64,000 nucleotides of DNA. It comes from a virus. Taxonomy: Duplodnaviria; Caudoviricetes. Both the position numbers and the translations under genes were made by a program. Below are positions 2,936-50,491 of this stretch, piece after piece. Under the pieces are notes generated by a model that was not told where the DNA came from, searched no databases, and was given only the letters and a program-made list of their open reading frames with translations. The first letter of the stretch is position 1. Every line of letters begins with the position of its first letter. Location: IMG/VR virus record IMGVR_UViG_3300013126_000031, positions 205 through 64,204 of that record; one strand, written 5' to 3'.

Positions 2936-3011
2936 TGGTGGGACGGGAGGGATTCGAACCCCCGACACTCGCATCTTCAGTGCGATGCTCTACCAACTGA
3001 GCTACCGTCCC
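2936..3011 (-). tRNA. tRNA-Phe(GAA)
   Basis: TCGCA-CT-GAA-GA-TGCGA, encoded CCA. Confidence 0.95.
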
Positions 3012-3072
3012 ATTTTGTTAATACAAATGTATGAACTATTTTTTAATTATCCAAATTATTTTGTATTTTTTT

Positions 3073-3714
3073 TTAATTAATTTCTTTTAACCATAAATTA
3101 TAAGGATAAAAAGCTTCCATATATTTTATATAACCACTTTCTTTATTTCTAATCTTACTTTCCCATGAGTTATACTTTATCGTATAATACCATAACTCTT
3201 GTCTAGTCCAATTTAATTTATTCTCCACATATTTTGCAACTTGATATCCAGTTCTATCAGCACCATGTGTGCAATGTATTAAAACATGTCCGTTTTGTAA
3301 TAGTGGTTGTATTTGATTTAATGATTCAACATAACCCTTTCCTTTTACATAACCTAAATGTGCATTAACCCAAACATATTTAACACCCATGCTTTCAACT
3401 AAGTGTTTTTCTTGCTCTGGTGATACGTTTGTAGTTTCTTTAGCATTCATTCTTATGACGGTTTTAATATCATACGTTTTCAAAATCGCTTCCATTTGTT
3501 TTAAAGATGGTTGCGAACTTCTAAAAACATAATTACCCCCAGGCACCGTATCAAAGTTTTTCGGTAAATTAGTTATCCTAACAAAATGATAAGTAGTATC
3601 TTTTATTTCCACTTTAACAACTTTGGTAGTATCAACCAATTCTACTTTTTTATCAACAGATTGACTAGAGCATGCTGTTGAAATCAATAACCCAATAAAA
3701 ATAAATTTCTTCAT
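3073..3714 (-). CDS. lipoprotein Cys-based tyrosine/dual-specificity phosphatase
   Basis: HCTHGADRTG (CX5R) motif, FRSSQP motif, lipobox LISTAC. Confidence 0.8.
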   Translation of the reverse strand: MKKFIFIGLLISTACSSQSVDKKVELVDTTKVVKVEIKDTTYHFVRITNLPKNFDTVPGGNYVFRSSQPSLKQMEAILKTYDIKTVIRMNAKETTNVSPEQEKHLVESMGVKYVWVNAHLGYVKGKGYVESLNQIQPLLQNGHVLIHCTHGADRTGYQVAKYVENKLNWTRQELWYYTIKYNSWESKIRNKESGYIKYMEAFYPYNLWLKEIN

Positions 3715-3795
3715 AATCTTAAATTGTTTATACAAATGTAATAACAATTTTTTAATTATCCAAATTTTTTAACTAATATTTCAAAGAACTTAAAT

Positions 3796-3825
3796 AAAAA
3801 AAGGTTGGCGTTTCGGCCAACCTTT
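3796..3825 (-). terminator. attenuator terminator 1
   Basis: AAAGGTTGGC-CGAAAC-GCCAACCTTT followed by U-tract. Confidence 0.85.
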
Positions 3826-3849
3826 AAATCAATATCGTTAAACAGTTTG

Positions 3850-3939
3850 TTAACTTTTGACATGAGTTGACCTTCCTAGGCTAAAATCGGCCTCGGCTGC
3901 AAAGAAATCAAACTCAAATATGTTATTAACTGTTTTCAT
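3850..3939 (-). CDS. leader peptide 1 MKTVNNIFEFDFFAAEADFSLGRSTHVKS (F/E/D/A sensing)
   Basis: 29-aa ORF between promoter and terminator; 12 consecutive F/E/D/A codons. Confidence 0.85.
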   Translation of the reverse strand: MKTVNNIFEFDFFAAEADFSLGRSTHVKS

Positions 3940-3988
3940 CGTTTTTATATTAAATATATTGTTTTTTCTAAAAATTCAATTTATACTA

Positions 3989-4019
3989 CAAATGTACAAC
4001 ATTATTTTTAATTTGTCAA
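3989..4019 (-). promoter_or_regulatory. promoter of attenuator cassette 1
   Basis: TTGACA-N17-TACATTTG, conserved at 5985-6015 and 26160-26190. Confidence 0.75.
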
Positions 4020-4037
4020 GTTTTTTTTGTTTTTTTT

Positions 4038-4688
4038 TTATTTTCTTATACCACTTAAAAAATCTTTAGCATTGTTAAAACCAATAATACCAATTATTTG
4101 TTTTAAAAAACTATTTTTATCTTTAACATTACTTTCTTTATATTTGTTGATGAGATTCACAACTTCTTGTTCTTTTTCTCTACCCAACTTTGTTTTATAA
4201 TCAGCAACATCTGCCATGTTCATAAAATAATACCCATTTATAAAATCAGCATCTTTTAATATTTCATTTGTTGACCTAACTTTTACATCAGCATATCTAC
4301 CACTAGCTTTTTCTGGTGACCAAAGTGTGAATGCTTCAATACTACCATCTTGTGTCGGTCTGTAAATACCACCATTTTTCAATTCTTCTGTTAATCCAGC
4401 TTGAACCCAAAGTTCTTCGTTAGGTATTACAATATCTAAATCTCCAATAGTTCCAGTCAACCCAAATGCATCTCTTAATTTAGGATACAAATACAATCTA
4501 GCTGAACCAGCAATAAAATAAACTCTATCTTTTGGGTTTATTTTAAATTTTTCAAATATAATTTTGTTAGCTTGAGATAACAATGAGTCTAAACCACCAC
4601 CATCAACTTCATCTAACAAATCTTCACTTACTTGAGACCAAAATTCTTTTAAAAAGAATTCTTTAATGTAAATCTCACTTAATCTCAT
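4038..4688 (-). CDS. putative pol-beta-type nucleotidyltransferase
   Basis: hAGS...GDLDIVI motif. Confidence 0.55.
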   Translation of the reverse strand: MRLSEIYIKEFFLKEFWSQVSEDLLDEVDGGGLDSLLSQANKIIFEKFKINPKDRVYFIAGSARLYLYPKLRDAFGLTGTIGDLDIVIPNEELWVQAGLTEELKNGGIYRPTQDGSIEAFTLWSPEKASGRYADVKVRSTNEILKDADFINGYYFMNMADVADYKTKLGREKEQEVVNLINKYKESNVKDKNSFLKQIIGIIGFNNAKDFLSGIRK

Positions 4689-4998
4689 ACTTTTTTAATT
4701 TTTTTAACACTTCTTTATTGTAAACGTTTTCCAATGTTAATGGTTTAAATGATAAATACATTTGTTTAGGGCTTGGTCCTTTCAAAAACAAAAAGTTATA
4801 TGCTGACCATTCACTAGTTAAATAATATCCATTCTCATTTTTCATCTTATCAAGCAAACACTCTGGATTTTCATTGATATATTTCCAATCATATTTGTTA
4901 CACATTTTACTAACTTTACTTAAAAAGATTCTTACTTCAAAGTATCTTGCTAGTAATAAAAAACAAATACCCCACATTACCATCGTTAACGTTATCAT
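4675..4998 (-). CDS. hypothetical protein with N-terminal TM
   Basis: ORF, start MITLTMVMWG. Confidence 0.6.
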   Translation of the reverse strand: MITLTMVMWGICFLLLARYFEVRIFLSKVSKMCNKYDWKYINENPECLLDKMKNENGYYLTSEWSAYNFLFLKGPSPKQMYLSFKPLTLENVYNKEVLKKLKKYEIK

Positions 4999-5072
4999 AT
5001 TATAAATATTAGTGTTAAAACAAATGTAAGAATAATGTTTTAAATATCCAAATAAAAGACATTTTTTTTTTG

Positions 5073-5146
5073 TATCTTCGGTGAGATTCGAACTCACACT
5101 GTATAGGGTCTAAGCCTATTGCCTCTGCCAGTTGGGCTACGAAGAC
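5073..5146 (-). tRNA. tRNA-Leu(TAG), short variable arm
   Basis: ATAGG-CT-TAG-AC-CCTAT. Confidence 0.88.
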
Positions 5147-5149
5147 ATT

Positions 5150-5237
5150 TGGTAGGGCGAGAGGGAGTCGAACCCTCACGGGACTAAGCCCAAGGGATTT
5201 TAAGTCCCTCATGTACTACCAATTTCATCACCGCCCC
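5150..5237 (-). tRNA. tRNA-Leu(TAA)
   Basis: AGGGA-CT-TAA-AA-TCCCT, long variable arm, CCA. Confidence 0.93.
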
Positions 5238-5261
5238 ATATTATAATATCAAAGAACTTTG

Positions 5262-5334
5262 TAGGGGTAGAGGGATTCGAACCCCCGACCTATTGCATGT
5301 AAGGCAATTGCTGCTACCGCTGAGCTATACCCCT
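5262..5334 (-). tRNA. tRNA-Val(TAC)
   Basis: ATTGC-CT-TAC-AT-GCAAT. Confidence 0.92.
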
Positions 5335-5724
5335 ATTTTTTATCATTAATCATTTTACTCGCACAGCACTCATATATTTCTGCTATGTTTTTCTTTCTTG
5401 GATTTGTGCCTGGTACGTCTAGTTCATCTAGCAACCCACTATCAATCCATTTCTGAATTATTTCTTCACGTCTTTTTTTTCATATGTACAATATTTTCAG
5501 ATATTGTATGACCTAAATTTTCCATGTTCTTATTTTTACTTTCTTTTAGTCTTTAACAACTTTCTTATTATTTTACCCCAATCAAAGTTATTTTTAACTT
5601 CGTTTACTTTTGGTCTAAGGTATTTTCTAGACCCTTCCATTTTGCCAGTGATAACTGTCCTAGTTACCATTTTTTCTTTGTTTGTTTCCATACTCTTTTT
5701 TTACTTTTAACATTATTATTTTTG

Positions 5725-5798
5725 AGCACCGAGTAGGATTCGAACCTACGAATAACGGTTTTGCAGACCGCCCCCTTAAACCACTTGAGCATCGGTGC
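5725..5798 (-). tRNA. tRNA-Cys(GCA)
   Basis: GCGGT-CT-GCA-AA-ACCGT, U73. Confidence 0.92.
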
Positions 5799-5805
5799 AT
5801 AAATT

Positions 5806-5835
5806 AAAAAAGGCCCATCGTTTCTGATGAGCCTT
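5806..5835 (-). terminator. attenuator terminator 2
   Basis: AAGGCTCATC-AGAAAC-GATGGGCCTT + U-tract, just upstream of tRNA-Cys. Confidence 0.85.
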
Positions 5836-5861
5836 CATATGTAGTTATAATTAGTTAAACT

Positions 5862-5936
5862 TTAACATACGTAGCCCACCTTGTCTACCACTAGTAAACA
5901 TAACAATAAGGCAATTTGTGTGTATAAAGTTTTCAT
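5862..5936 (-). CDS. leader peptide 2 MKTLYTQIALLLCLLVVDKVGYVC (L/C/V sensing)
   Basis: 24-aa ORF between promoter and terminator; run TTA TTG TTA TGT TTA CTA GTG GTA. Confidence 0.85.
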   Translation of the reverse strand: MKTLYTQIALLLCLLVVDKVGYVC

Positions 5937-5984
5937 AGTTTTTGCTTTTTATAATTAAATATATCTATTTCTTTAAATGTTATA

Positions 5985-6015
5985 CAAATGTACAACATTT
6001 TTTTTGATTTGTCAA
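5985..6015 (-). promoter_or_regulatory. promoter of attenuator cassette 2
   Basis: TTGACA-N17-TACATTTG. Confidence 0.75.
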
Positions 6016-6058
6016 GTTTTTTTAATTTTTTTTTAAATATTTATATAAAAAAAGTATC

Positions 6059-6685
6059 ATGATTAAAGATTTATTAAAAAAATACCTTTTAGAATATATT
6101 GATGAAGCTGCACCGATGGGTCACTTTAATGACCGTGTTAGTGAAGTTGTCGAAGACATTATAGGTGTAACAATACCACCTAATGTGTATGTTGCTGGTG
6201 CAACAAAAGAACAACAAGATGCTTGGGTTATTTCTCAAATTCAATCTAAACTTAAAGAAAAAATAAACGCTGTGATAGCAACTGATTTCCCAATAGGTAA
6301 GGGTAATAAAGAAGGTATTTGCGTTTTAGTTCCTCTAGGTATGGTTAAAGTACAACCATTAAAAGGTAATCCAGTTACAGTTACAGTTACTGCTAAACGT
6401 AAGGAGGATGTTAGAAGTGGTATTTCTTATTACATCGGAATATATGATAACCGTATGCCAAGTTTAGTTTTGGCTGACCCTACTATTGCAGCAAACAGAA
6501 GTCCACATTTACAGCTTCAAGCACATATTACCAACAACATTAAAAATGGTTGGCCAGTAAACAAAGAACGTTCTTATGTTGATAAATCATTCATGGACAA
6601 CATTGTTGTAAACATGGCTGATTTTAAAATAACTAAAAAAGAACCAGGAGCCGAAGCTCCTTCTTCAACCGTAGATATTGCTTAA
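6059..6685 (+). CDS. hypothetical protein
   Basis: 208-aa ORF preceded by ATATTTATA. Confidence 0.75.
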   Translation: MIKDLLKKYLLEYIDEAAPMGHFNDRVSEVVEDIIGVTIPPNVYVAGATKEQQDAWVISQIQSKLKEKINAVIATDFPIGKGNKEGICVLVPLGMVKVQPLKGNPVTVTVTAKRKEDVRSGISYYIGIYDNRMPSLVLADPTIAANRSPHLQLQAHITNNIKNGWPVNKERSYVDKSFMDNIVVNMADFKITKKEPGAEAPSSTVDIA

Positions 6686-6939
6686 AACTCAATATAAACA
6701 TTTATTACGTTTTCTTTTGTTTTAACAGTTGCTTGTTTAACATCGCCAGTGATGTTATCATTAAGTATTGTTTGTAATCGTTCAATATCAAACTCAATAT
6801 CTAATCTTGAGTTAAAATCAATCATTGCATCGATTGGTTCGTTAGTTGTTGTAGGTGTGATGCTAGATAAATCAAAACTAGTAACACCAAATTCAGCAAC
6901 TAAAGATAAATAAAGACCAGTTAAATTTACATTTTTCAT
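6682..6939 (-). CDS. hypothetical protein
   Basis: ORF with TACATTTG promoter upstream. Confidence 0.6.
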   Translation of the reverse strand: MKNVNLTGLYLSLVAEFGVTSFDLSSITPTTTNEPIDAMIDFNSRLDIEFDIERLQTILNDNITGDVKQATVKTKENVINVYIEF

Positions 6940-7046
6940 AATGTTATTTTTTAATTATATTACAAATGTAGAAAAACTTTTTTAATCTACCAAATAATTT
7001 CAATAAAATATTTACACATAAATAAAAAATACCTATAATTACAATT

Positions 7047-25097: not shown

Positions 25098-25676
25098 TTA
25101 TTTATTCTTACCAGCGTATGTTTCAGTCTGTGAATGACAATTAGGGCACATAAAACGTAAATTTTCTATTCTATTATCATTATTTATGCCGTTAATATGG
25201 TCTATTTGTAATATTAACTTACTACCCATCCATTCACCAATATTACCACAACTTACACATTTATACTCTAATAAATTACTTCTTAATACTCTATTCTTCA
25301 AATGACCAGAATTATATTGTGAATTCTCACAAAATATTTCAGAATCACTATATTTTACCTTAGTAACGTTTCTTCTAGGGTTACCTTTATATAAATCATT
25401 ATCTATTTCATATAAATCAAAATACCTTTTTAACGTTCTATAATTTCCAGCTTTTAATGTTAAACCCATTTTTTCTAACACTTCAGCTTTAGAGGTTGAA
25501 GAATCTATCAACGGTTTTAACTCTTCAAAACTCCATTTATGATAATATTTTTTAGGTTTAACATCATATTTATTCGCCCAATATCTTATAGTTGTTAGTG
25601 ATTTATTAGTTCTTTTACTTATTTCTCTTAAAGATAAACCTTCTTTAAGAAGCTTTTCTAAATCTATTTTTTCCAT
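25098..25676 (-). mobile_element. HTH-HNH homing endonuclease
   Basis: N-terminal HTH; CVSCG...IDHING...NLRFMCPNCH. Confidence 0.88.
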
Positions 25677-25733
25677 ATTTATGTTTTTATATAAATATAT
25701 AATAATAGTTCAAAAAGTAAATACCACTTTAAA

Positions 25734-25768
25734 AATCTAGCACTCTAACCAACTGAGCTAACACCACC
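25734..25768 (-). pseudogene. 5' half of a tRNA-His-like gene
   Basis: G-GTGGTGT-TAGCTCAGTTGGTTAGAGTG-CTAGATT, breaks at the anticodon loop. Confidence 0.65.
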
Positions 25769-32345: not shown

Positions 32346-32435
32346 ATGTTGTATCCTAGGTTGGCAGTGAGCCAACTATTAAATAGTTGCTTGGCACCCA
32401 TTTAATAAGGACAATTCCTCTAGAATAAGTTTGGC

Positions 32436-32499
32436 CAGAATCTTCTTTTTTACTTTTGTTTTCTGAATAATAGTATAAATAAATTGCTGAATAGATTCT
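32436..32499 (-). ncRNA. CWGCAA-stem RNA copy C (minimal)
   Basis: AGAATCT-ATTCAGCAA...AGATTCT-G. Confidence 0.6.
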
Positions 32500-32519
32500 T
32501 TCTGCCAATAAGTTTATCT

Positions 32520-32779
32520 CAAGATGGTTTTCTTAATATTTTTCATCCCAGCGGATTAACCCTTTTTACGTCTTCGGCTTAGCTTTGGCGAGAGTCTACT
32601 GTTCTTCAACTACATCCTACTCGCACCTATTGGGGTGGTTGTGACGTGATTTTTGTTTTAGTTGGAAACCTAACCAATTTTGTTTAATTCCGTTGTTAAA
32701 GCATGTTTTCACATTTCTAACATACCAATTAAACGAATCATAGTTGTATCTGTTTTTGTTTGGTTGCAGAACCCATCTT
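32520..32779 (-). ncRNA. CWGCAA-stem RNA copy D (long)
   Basis: AAGATGG-GTTCTGCAA...~240 nt...CCATCTT-G. Confidence 0.6.
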
Positions 32780-32894
32780 TTTTAGATAATATTTTTAATA
32801 AGTTAAAGAACGTTGTTTTTAATTATATTACAAATGTACAAATAAATATCTCGTTTGTCAAGTAAAAACCAAAATATTTTTAAAAAAAAATAAA

Positions 32895-34263: not shown

Positions 34264-34378
34264 AGTTTTACTTTTAATATAAATATATCAAAAATAAAAA
34301 ACCCCCAGTAAAGCGACTTACTGAGGGTCATAATTTCATTTCTCGTGGCGTGTTGTTTGAGAATGAATCTGTTAGAAG

Positions 34379-34732
34379 TGGAGATAATGGGATTCGAACC
34401 CATGTGTTGAATATTCTTCGATGCTTTCTACATGTTTAGGTCATGATTTTCTAACCATCCGAAACTTTCCTTAATTTTATAGTGGTTTTGGTTCCACTAG
34501 TATTCATACCATAGATGGTTTACCATCATCTCGTTAGTGGATTACCACTATCAGCAGTGTTAGGCAACTGCAAGCTCTCCGTTAGAAACGAATGTCGCTT
34601 CGTCAAGGAAATTTTCTGATACGATTAAATCGTTGTCATTTCTTGTTCTAATAGTATTTTTTAAAGTGCTTCCAATCTAGCACTACATGCTTACTACCTA
34701 CGACTATACCCAGTCAATACCGTCATATCCCC
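34379..34732 (-). ncRNA. ssrA: tmRNA
   Basis: GGGGATA/TATCTCCA acceptor with G3:U70, TTGAC 5' motif, GCATGTAG helix, T-arm, tag ORF ending ...GELAVA-stop. Confidence 0.92.
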
Positions 34733-48730: not shown

Positions 48731-50491
48731 CTATTTAATTTTAATTCTAATCTTAGTCCCTTTATCTTTTTCACATGTAATACCAAAACCATGTTCTTTT
48801 AGTATTGCAACACATATGCTTAACCCTAGACCAGTTCCTGGTTCTTTTTGATTCCTTTTTCTGGAATAAGGTTTTGAATAAAGTTCGAATTCTTTTTGTG
48901 ATAACCCTCTACCGTTATCTTGTACAACCAACGTATCTTCATCTTCCATGTAAATATTGATTAGTTTACTATTTGAGTCATTATACTTCAAACCATTTCT
49001 AATTAGATTATCGATTGCTGTACAGAATAATGATTCATTCACTTCATGGTTTGGTAAATCATCTATTTTAACTTGACTTAAATAAGCTGTTGATTTTAAA
49101 AAATTAATTAATTTTTCTCTTAGATTATGATAATCTTTTGATAACACAGCATCTTTTTTAACTAGATTTGTAAATTCATAAACACCTTTGTAAACTTTTT
49201 GTGTGTGTTTCAAACCCTCTTTCAACATTTTTAACGGTGCTTCTAGTTTTAATTTATCTACCAATTCTGGTGTTAATCTTCGTTCTAACGAACTTATACC
49301 TCTTGGGATATATGTGTTTATCCCAGAATGCATATCGTGTCTTAAAATCTTCGCAGCGTGTTCTAAATAAGTATTCTTTTTGTTTATTTCATTTAGTGAT
49401 TCATATAACTCTGTTACATCTTGTCTAATTGACATAAAACCTAATAATTCACCAGTTTCTTGGTCAAAATCAGCTTTAATGTAAGTATCAACATAATATA
49501 GTGTACCATTCTTTCTTTTATTGATAACTAAATCGTGCCAAATCTTTTTTTCAGAAACCGTTTTTTTATACATTTTAGACCAATAGTCTTTTGTTTGTAT
49601 TCCAGAATTAACAATATTGTGGTCTTTACCTATTATTTCTCTTAATGAATAACCACATACTTCTGAGAATTTTTTATTAGCATATGTTATTTTACCATGT
49701 TTATCAGTTTTTGAAATTAAAGCTGTTTCATTTACAAATTCTTCAAATTCGATAAGATTTTGTTCTACTTTTTTATTTTCTTTAACTGAATACATAAATG
49801 CAAAAATAGATGATAACATTTCTGAAAAATTAATCTCAACTTTATGCCATTCTCTTTGTTCTAATGATTCTAAACAAATAACCCCAATAACTTTACCTTT
49901 ATAGATAATTGGAACGTCCAACATAGATTTGATACCCAATGGAATTAAATATGATTCACCAAAACATTTTGTAGATTGATGTGTTAAGGCATCATCTGCA
50001 ATAATTATAGGGTCAACTATCAACGAATTAAAATAAGGTTCGTAATCTTTCTTGTATAACGTAATATCTGTATACCATTTATCTTCTGATTTGATATAAA
50101 GTTGTTCACATTCTATTGCTGTCTTATCTTCATTGTATAACCATATTGAACATCTATCCACACCAGTTGCTAACGTAACTTCTTTAGTTAAATGTTTTGA
50201 CCCTTCAACTACATTACCATCATAAAATAATTGATTGTGTGATTGTTTAATCAATATTTCATTTAAATTTTTAGCGTAATAGTTTAAATTGGTAGACTCT
50301 TTGCTTTTTCTAATGTAGTTTCTTATAAATAAAGTAGATGGTATTGAAAACAATAAAATAGTAACGTAATTAAAAACAGCCACTTCTTTACACATGGGAA
50401 AATAATCTAACATTAATAATGTATGTATTAAAATATAAAACACTATAATTGTTGAGCAAACACCTATGTATATTCTGTTTAATTTTTCCAT
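48731..50491 (-). CDS. sensor histidine kinase (TM-GAF-PAS-HK)
   Basis: RHDM H-box, NLIRNGLKY, DNGRG, GTGLGL. Confidence 0.9.
   Translation of the reverse strand: MEKLNRIYIGVCSTIIVFYILIHTLLMLDYFPMCKEVAVFNYVTILLFSIPSTLFIRNYIRKSKESTNLNYYAKNLNEILIKQSHNQLFYDGNVVEGSKHLTKEVTLATGVDRCSIWLYNEDKTAIECEQLYIKSEDKWYTDITLYKKDYEPYFNSLIVDPIIIADDALTHQSTKCFGESYLIPLGIKSMLDVPIIYKGKVIGVICLESLEQREWHKVEINFSEMLSSIFAFMYSVKENKKVEQNLIEFEEFVNETALISKTDKHGKITYANKKFSEVCGYSLREIIGKDHNIVNSGIQTKDYWSKMYKKTVSEKKIWHDLVINKRKNGTLYYVDTYIKADFDQETGELLGFMSIRQDVTELYESLNEINKKNTYLEHAAKILRHDMHSGINTYIPRGISSLERRLTPELVDKLKLEAPLKMLKEGLKHTQKVYKGVYEFTNLVKKDAVLSKDYHNLREKLINFLKSTAYLSQVKIDDLPNHEVNESLFCTAIDNLIRNGLKYNDSNSKLINIYMEDEDTLVVQDNGRGLSQKEFELYSKPYSRKRNQKEPGTGLGLSICVAILKEHGFGITCEKDKGTKIRIKIK

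Follow-up and report, generated by a model that had tools for sequence, protein, structure and literature searches.

Organization of the Locus

The window, by which we mean the whole 64,000-nt stretch of viral DNA analyzed here, is AT-rich phage DNA with 19 genes for tRNAs and one for a tmRNA, every one of them on the minus strand. We concentrated on a leader unit, LCV (5806-6016), which stands before a cluster of tRNA-Cys, tRNA-Val and two tRNA-Leu genes (Table 1). A small basic ORF lies within this cluster, and no PHROGs family was found for it; searches of the 208-aa and 216-aa proteins and the neighboring small ORFs against PHROGs and Pfam likewise gave no family.

On the minus strand, the LCV promoter reads CTTGACAAAT, a 12-nt gap, and then TTGTACATTTGTA. 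This extended pattern occurs twice in the 64-kb window vs. 0 occurrences expected, the second copy belonging to unit 1, described below. The −7 box by itself occurs 15 times against 0.70 expected, with 15 of 15 copies on the minus strand, and we accordingly take it for the standard promoter box of this phage. In a sigma-70-like scan, the LCV promoter scored 10 out of 12, and we take it to match the TTG / TAnnTTTG promoters of Bacteroidota; by this promoter type, the hosts are probably Bacteroidota of fresh water. It is the sole strong promoter upstream of the Cys-Val-Leu-Leu genes, and the stretch that runs from the leader to the four tRNA genes has no second one with a TTG −33 element. The 5′ UTR motif that follows is present in all three of the window's units and also in units of relatives, while the leader ORF keeps its 24 codons and its stop position in five of five aligned homologues (one metagenome variant, L271, has a leader of 23 residues). 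An earlier reading of the locus made from the sequence alone (the sequence-only reading) had the U-tract of the terminator ending less than 10 nt from tRNA-Cys, and the spacing is indeed 7 nt.

Table 1. Features of the LCV unit, its paralogs and other elements of the window (positions are those of the window)
Feature	Position	Strand	Description and basis
LCV promoter	about 6016-5983 (−7 box 5992-5983)	minus	CTTGACAAAT (−33 region) and TACATTTGTA (−7 box); pattern count, sigma-70-like scan
LCV 5′ UTR motif	5954-5962	minus	ATATTTAAT, conserved; 17 nt upstream of ATG
LCV leader ORF	ATG 5936, stop 5864-5862	minus	MKTLYTQIALLLCLLVVDKVGYVC, 24 codons and stop; ORF list, translation
Regulatory run	5909-5886	minus	codons 10-17 (L10-V17), TTA TTG TTA TGT TTA CTA GTG GTA; cognate to downstream anticodons
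Hairpin H1	5900-5882	minus	ORF nt 37-55, within regulatory codons; predicted MFE structure
Region 2	5880-5873	minus	GGUGGGCU, candidate antiterminator 5′ strand, near-copy of terminator 3′ arm; duplex search
LCV intrinsic terminator	5836-5806	minus	11-bp stem (11 pairs, 5 G-C), 6-nt loop, T6 at 5811-5806
Terminator 5′ arm	5833-5826	minus	GGCUCAUC; terminator stem
Terminator 3′ arm	5819-5812	minus	GAUGGGCC; terminator stem
Genes behind LCV terminator	5072-5798	minus	tRNA-Cys, 51-aa ORF, tRNA-Val, two tRNA-Leu
tRNA-Cys(gca)	5798-5724	minus	first gene after LCV terminator
51-aa ORF	5691-5536	minus	between tRNA-Cys and tRNA-Val; same place in relative L001
tRNA-Val(tac)	5334-5261	minus	LCV cluster
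tRNA-Leu(taa)	5237-5150	minus	LCV cluster
tRNA-Leu(tag)	5146-5072	minus	LCV cluster
Unit 1 (FEDA)	4019-3800	minus	unit search
Unit 1 promoter	4019-3987	minus	same promoter as LCV
Unit 1 leader	3939-3850	minus	MKTVNNIFEFDFFAAEADFSLGRSTHVKS
Unit 1 terminator	3825-3800	minus
Phosphatase gene	3075-3714	minus	between FEDA terminator and tRNA-Phe
Unit 1 tRNA genes	3011-2635	minus	Phe, Glu, Asp
Unit 3 (INHSWR)	26200-25954	minus	unit search
Unit 3 promoter	about 26200-26158	minus	slightly altered form of the extended pattern
Unit 3 leader	26107-26012	minus	MRTINIHMISISNWRRNSIHTGQGMLNDIAK
Unit 3 terminator	25988-25954	minus
65-aa ORF	25942-25745	minus	conserved
tRNA-like 5′ half	25727-25768	minus	by eye
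HNH endonuclease gene	25098-25676	minus	Pfam HNH
Unit 3 tRNA genes	25094-23524	minus	His, Trp, Ser, Ile, Asn, Arg(acg), Arg(tct)
tRNA with four-base anticodon (ttta)	988-1066	minus	ARAGORN
tRNA-Arg	1302-1374	minus
Stretch before two tRNA-Met(cat) genes	32346-32838	minus	promoter CTTGACAAAC ... TACATTTGTA
tmRNA gene	34378-34732	minus	tag VSENFLDEATFVSNGELAVA
Histidine-kinase-like gene	48731-50491	minus	586 aa; Pfam HATPase_c, GAF, PAS_9

Codon Content of the LCV Leader

The codon run had been proposed to use only codons read by the downstream tRNAs. Under standard wobble, this held for eight of its eight codons, and Cys(gca), Val(tac), Leu(taa) and Leu(tag) are each matched by at least one codon of the run. 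The corresponding codon set makes up a fraction of 0.135 of all codons in the 64-kb window, and across the six frames of the window this run is the only stretch of at least eight codons drawn from the set. At the amino-acid level, residues 2-21 of the leader include 10 Cys, Leu or Val vs. 3 expected (binomial P 2.6e-4).

Within codons 10-15, the five aligned homologues differ at four of six columns, and all of the changes are synonymous (TTA, TTG, CTT and CTA), while codons 4-9 and 16-19 vary non-synonymously. In the INHSWR family, to which unit 3 of the window belongs, one Ser position is AGT in some members and TCG in others. The retention of frame, ATG and stop, together with synonymous Leu and Ser changes even across codon boxes, points to decoding by ribosomes, and judged by these substitutions the LCV ORF is selected for codon identity.

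The same evidence bears on a quite different explanation, namely that the short terminated transcript is itself the functional product (a small RNA, a decoy or a T-box-like tRNA binder) and that the tRNA genes are independent of it. A strong promoter followed by a strong terminator would give a short RNA, about 180 nt long, in abundance. The FEDA leader (unit 1) is very highly conserved at the nucleotide level in its 3′ part, and attenuator-derived RNAs acting in trans are reported in the abstract of one paper (PMC6614838). A product of that kind does not account for a kept reading frame in which Leu and Ser codons change synonymously, even between codon boxes; no T-box or other Rfam family matched the leader, and the LCV unit offers tRNA-Cys no other promoter. 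We therefore regard a functional short RNA as quite improbable.

For the Rfam comparison, matches at gathering scores in the window were to tRNA and tmRNA alone, with no amino-acid leader (His, Leu, Thr, Trp and others) and no T-box among them. At permissive E-values over positions 3750-6050, nothing fell on the leader (5806-5975), and a match to MIR8562 that overlaps unit 1 was at chance level (E 4.2, 17.2 bits vs. a gathering score of 211). None of the 24 sequencing runs found to contain DNA of window positions 3000-7000 is on record as RNA.

Terminator and Competing Helix

The LCV terminator has a folding energy of −16.3 kcal/mol, and all of its 50 cells pair in the alignment of five homologues, with two compensatory pairs. 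The sequence-only reading also held that region 2 (5873-5880) can pair with the 5′ arm of the terminator (5826-5833), and the two segments, GGUGGGCU and GGCUCAUC, do form a duplex of 8 bp including 3 G-U pairs. This is the best site in the LCV leader for pairing with its own 5′ arm (−12.0 kcal/mol), an energy matched by 7 of 300 shuffles. In the five homologues, 40 of 40 cells of the predicted antiterminator pair, vs. 31-58% for controls in which the partner was slid. Four changes were seen in this helix, all one-sided and wobble-compatible, with none double-sided; since region 2 is invariant in the LCV family, changes can only fall on one side, and the argument from covariation therefore rests on the comparison of families.

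In that comparison, a strong terminator was present 125-153 nt after the ATG in all 17 distinct units of the initial collection. Immediately past the regulatory codons, the ORF of each unit contains a segment that nearly duplicates the 3′ arm of the unit's own terminator and that changes together with this terminator from family to family. Thus LCV region 2 (GGUGGGCU) faces a 5′ arm of AGCCCAUC, GGCUCAUC or GGCCUAUC, the INHSWR region 2 (GGUCAAGGU) faces GCCUUGACC, and the pairs in three further units are GGUCGG with CCGACC (L044), AUCGGGU with ACCCGAU (L007) and GACUGGG with CCCAGU (L025). The site at which the leader pairs with its own terminator 5′ arm lies at nt 47-79 of the ORF across the 17 units, and in 15 of them no more than 5% of 300 shuffles reach the energy of this pairing. 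The mean energy was −13.4 kcal/mol with the unit's own arm vs. −8.2 ± 2.0 kcal/mol with arms taken from other families, and the own arm was better than every cross-family arm in 13 of the 17 units. The two units that failed the shuffle test and the four that failed the cross-arm test did so partly because the automatic choice of arm is poor for interrupted stems.

Predicted folds followed the same two alternatives: transcripts cut after region 3 adopted the 2:3 helix in most units, LCV among them, and full-length transcripts adopted the terminator. In minimum free energy (MFE) structures, region 2 is paired with upstream codons, with partners that differ between LCV homologues, and a consistent 1:2 (anti-antiterminator) helix was not found in the LCV family. 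For hairpin H1, predicted within the regulatory codons, the five homologues show pairing in 39 of 40 cells and one compensatory pair, a result equaled by 98 of 500 shuffles; it may act as a pause hairpin.

Paralogous Units in the Window

The LCV unit is one of three paralogous leader units in the window. The leader of unit 1 carries FEFDFFAAEADF and that of unit 3 carries INIHMISISNWRRNSIH, each fitting the tRNA genes that follow (Table 1). Residues 2-21 include 9 from the unit's own set in unit 1 and 17 in unit 3, as compared with 10 in LCV (binomial P 7e-3 and 8e-8 for units 1 and 3, with the amino-acid frequencies of the window's long ORFs as background), and over the eight leaders tested P was as low as 1.4e-8.

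The correspondence between leader and cluster has exceptions in the window. The FEDA leader has three Ala codons, yet the window has no Ala tRNA, which is explained by the Ala tRNAs found behind the orthologous leader in a relative (see below). The INHSWR leader keeps AGT/AGC and ATA/ATG codons, and its cluster has neither Ser(gct) nor Met(cat). Between terminator and first tRNA, moreover, unit 1 has a second promoter and a phosphatase gene, and unit 3 has a small ORF and an HNH gene, so that control by an attenuator cannot be exclusive in these two units. No leader was seen before the window's Met/Arg cluster (1458) or its Met/Met cluster (32345).

Several other elements of the window deserve mention in their own right. 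The product of the phosphatase gene, which has its own promoter, is lipoprotein-like and of the dual-specificity or tyrosine type (Pfam Y_phosphatase3, and DSPc below the curated cut-off); the gene is missing at this place in the relative L001. Before the two tRNA-Met(cat) genes lies a promoter of the same special type, and the roughly 490 nt between it and tRNA-Met hold no ORF-plus-terminator unit and no Rfam match; this stretch may be a structured RNA or a long tRNA leader. Downstream of the unit 3 terminator, we noted by eye a tRNA 5′ half (acceptor stem, D arm, anticodon stem and U-rich loop) that overlaps the end of the conserved 65-aa ORF and is followed by the HNH endonuclease gene and then tRNA-His. 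Neither ARAGORN nor Rfam called this half, which has the appearance of a truncated tRNA gene or of one split by insertion of a homing endonuclease. Further tRNA-like 5′ halves with inserted sequence occur between the tRNA with a four-base anticodon and tRNA-Arg (988-1310), and 'tRNA-???' calls with 2- or 4-base anticodons were also found in L017, L267 and LR745206; such calls may represent intron-containing or frameshift-suppressor-like tRNAs. The window also encodes a GAF-PAS-histidine-kinase-like protein as well as the tmRNA, a rescue RNA for stalled ribosomes in a genome that seems to signal by ribosome stalling.

Related Units in Other Phages

We searched for further units in several collections, with varying yield. 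Viral contigs yielded 95 stretches in a pattern scan, most of them chance matches, and no match to the strict promoter pattern. A more specific scan of metagenome contigs returned 42 stretches, 38 of which were units. A scan of genome contigs with the unit pattern gave at least 120 stretches; among the matches listed there were no true units and no clue to the host, one of them being a chance ORF that adjoins a single tRNA.

One relative, L001, is a 137-kb viral contig in which the neighboring 208-aa protein is 82% identical to that of the window. It carries both orthologous units, and its FEDA leader stands directly before tRNAs for Phe, Glu, Asp, Ala, Ala and Glu. A fourth family, brought to light together with many further copies by the viral and metagenome scans, TYQPKG (TYQPKQ..GGKP; MKTTVTTYQPKQTQGGKP...), precedes tRNAs for Pro, Gln, Tyr, Thr, Gly, Gly, Lys and Lys. 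The four families of this phage type (F,E,D,A / L,C,V / I,N,H,S,W,R,M / T,Y,Q,P,K,G) cover the 20 amino acids, each exactly once, and out of the 24 permutations of leaders over clusters, the true assignment scored 56 and the next best 39. One unit, L044, retains Ile and Trp codons without those tRNAs nearby. Nine metagenome units (L257, L265, L268, L280, L284, L285, L289, L290 and L295) are variants in which the 5′ UTR is extended and a small G+C hairpin, such as GGGTTAAAACCC, separates ATATTTAAT from the ATG. In one of them, L265, tRNA-Phe comes directly after the FEDA terminator without a second promoter.

When the 'phages' collection was searched with leader DNA, the sole relevant match was LR745206, a 634-kb uncultured phage with 59 tRNA genes in clusters that are composed differently and with the UTR motif as well; the remaining matches were low-identity, AT-rich, and to homing-endonuclease genes. 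Three leaders were found in LR745206, and the same three families occur in its kin. The first, PQPQDQDP (MKTINVNIAPVNPQPQDQDP...), precedes tRNAs for Pro, Asp (four), Pro and Gln (three); the second, HKNFSKSHKWF (MTTNSTHKNFSKSHKWFS...), precedes His, Phe, His, Phe, Trp, Lys (four), Arg and Ser; and the third, TMNLNMTMNLTLNVVNITL (MTTMNLNMTMNLTLNVVNITL...), precedes Asn, Arg, Leu, Val, Ile, Thr and Met. Here too the true assignment of leaders to clusters was the best of 24 permutations. Cluster B of this phage is without a leader. At 364770-364870 (L117), a UTR-like element (AAAAGGGAGACAACCTTTTTAATATATA) stands before tRNAs for Met, Glu (four), Tyr (two), Ile, Gly, Met and Gly; it has no ORF or terminator and continues straight into tRNA-Met. 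The Tenacibaculum phage PTm1 shares a nucleotidyltransferase at 38% identity but gave no tRNA matches, and it is therefore unusable as a cultured test system; no phage in culture was found to carry the system.

We then pooled all units followed by three or more typed tRNAs, 37 in number; many of these units are homologous rather than independent, and they represent about seven independent families. In this set, 243 of 252 tRNAs have their amino acid among codons 2-24 of their own leader. The fraction of tRNA amino acids present in the leader was 0.97 for own leaders vs. 0.42 across families, and the fraction of leader residues 2-21 that fall within the tRNA set was 0.64 vs. 0.14. At the finer level of isoacceptors, for which the sequence-only reading had called for a comparison of leader codons with anticodon content in homologous loci, the unit's own leader contains a cognate codon for 94 of the 98 anticodon species counted in 17 units; AGA and CGC codons, for example, accompany Arg(tct) and Arg(acg), and GGC and GGA accompany two Gly tRNAs.

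These comparisons also bear on another explanation, in which the LCV ORF and its terminator form a gene for a small, hydrophobic membrane peptide, and both the proximity to tRNA genes and the codon match are coincidental. In favor of such a product, LLLCLLVV is hydrophobic and the peptide is conserved in about 10 related contigs. Its persistence irrespective of tRNA content had been named as the outcome that would speak against attenuation, and the opposite was found, with leader composition tracking tRNA content in seven families and two phage types. Paralogous leaders such as TYQPKQTQGGKP, INIHMISISNWRR and PQPQDQDP are not hydrophobic and each fits its own cluster, the C-terminal VGY is accounted for by the RNA helix, and both the selection on codon families and the segment complementary to the terminator recur in all families. 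Given that the remaining leaders are non-hydrophobic, we exclude the membrane peptide as an explanation and assign it an extremely small probability. The system is widespread in uncultured freshwater phages, occurring in contigs of up to at least 137 kb and in the 634-kb phage.

Proposed Mechanism

The ORF, the codon-anticodon match, the terminator and the helix that competes with it, all of which vary jointly in relatives, together make it likely that the LCV element is a ribosome-mediated (leader-peptide) transcription attenuator of a phage tRNA operon, belonging to a set with one attenuator per cluster. A Leu/Cys/Val attenuator with sensing at the level of isoacceptors is what the sequence-only reading had put forward, and every sequence-level test that we ran (ORF, terminator, competing helix and codon selection) agrees with it; the regulatory behavior that follows is our reconstruction from these features. 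Transcription would start at the Bacteroidota-type promoter, and the 24 codons would be translated first. With cognate charged tRNAs plentiful, the ribosome would run on over GGUGGGCU, the terminator hairpin would form, and the polymerase would halt just before tRNA-Cys. With any cognate tRNA scarce, the ribosome would stall in the codon run and leave region 2 free to pair with the terminator 5′ arm, giving read-through into the Cys-Val-Leu-Leu genes. Since the codons being sensed call for the very tRNAs that are encoded beyond the terminator, such a loop would be a negative feedback on tRNA supply, and the phage probably makes these tRNAs only on shortage. This scheme presumes coupling of ribosome and polymerase in the host, a switch that runs from stall to read-through rather than in reverse, and a trigger that is the supply of tRNA and not of amino acids.

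A switch with the same parts might nevertheless take another input or follow another logic, responding to general translation capacity or amino-acid starvation, or being operated by active translation that frees region 2. In the last variant, translation of the leader would itself give read-through, and the tRNA genes would be transcribed only while ribosomes work. The ORF, terminator and competing helix would be identical under any of these versions, and some of the geometry is in their favor. Region 2 starts 4-12 nt past the last regulatory codon, so near that a ribosome of the usual footprint, stalled on the last codons, would presumably cover it, for which reason the stall-to-read-through model should fit early stalls best. 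The distance from region 2 to the stop codon is 21-27 nt in most families, so that a terminating ribosome would leave region 2 uncovered. A sensor of general capacity, in contrast, has no need for leaders that list the downstream tRNAs cluster by cluster and isoacceptor by isoacceptor, and an amino-acid input sits poorly with a phage that provides tRNAs rather than amino acids. We consider these alternatives unlikely, if less so than the functional short RNA discussed above, and prefer the attenuator that responds to shortage of tRNA.

A stronger version of the attenuator reading can be offered only tentatively, as a possibility that we would not bet on: that the unit is a codon-resolved sensor of tRNA supply in which the 20 amino acids are shared out over a few clusters and each leader is a table of contents of its cluster, so that loss of a single isoacceptor switches on the replacement tRNAs, and that it is the first case of leader-peptide control of tRNA genes and a counter-measure to tRNA-targeting defence. 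If this were true, the loss of an isoacceptor could stem from a mismatch with the host tRNA pool or from host anticodon nucleases.

Codon usage and the replacement of degraded or cleaved host tRNAs are the usual explanations for tRNA genes in phages. If the proposed mechanism is true, a virus gauges tRNA supply by translation and answers by transcribing the tRNAs that are missing, and textbook attenuation is extended from amino-acid metabolism to tRNA genes. The combination of promoter, codon list and switch would also be a simple and portable design, reusable as a sensor for single tRNA species.

Comparison with Known Systems

In full-text searches of openly accessible papers, supplements aside, no report turned up of control of phage tRNA genes by a leader peptide or attenuator. 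Four of the features that define a leader-peptide attenuator are present here, namely a short ORF, a run of cognate codons, an intrinsic terminator and an alternative antiterminator helix. The genes behind the LCV terminator, tRNA genes and a small ORF of unknown family, fall outside the classical scope of such attenuators, which covers genes for biosynthesis, transport and aminoacyl-tRNA synthetases.

Multivalent attenuators are known from amino-acid operons of Proteobacteria (ilvL/ivbL and thrL), alongside trpL, hisL, leuL and pheL. As in the ilvL and thrL type, the phage units have a short ORF with a regulatory codon run followed by an intrinsic terminator, the terminator 5′ arm has an alternative pairing partner in the last part of the ORF, and one leader would sense several amino acids. 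Unlike that type, they precede tRNA genes rather than biosynthetic enzymes; their leaders list from 3 to 9 amino acids, at isoacceptor level and matching the downstream genes; and they are phage-borne, have a Bacteroidota-type promoter and show no sequence similarity to the known leaders, none of whose Rfam families matched. The leader pheM, through which pheST is controlled by attenuation of an aminoacyl-tRNA synthetase, is comparable in that a leader peptide adapts how much of a translation component is made to how much is needed, although pheM involves one amino acid, a protein-coding target and a host chromosome. T-box riboswitches bind uncharged tRNA directly, with one specifier codon, a conserved T-box sequence and no translation. 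The phage units resemble the T-box (RF00230) in that the state of specific tRNAs would be read by a switch between terminator and antiterminator, and differ from it in having an ORF that looks translated and contains many codons, and in giving no match to the T-box model.
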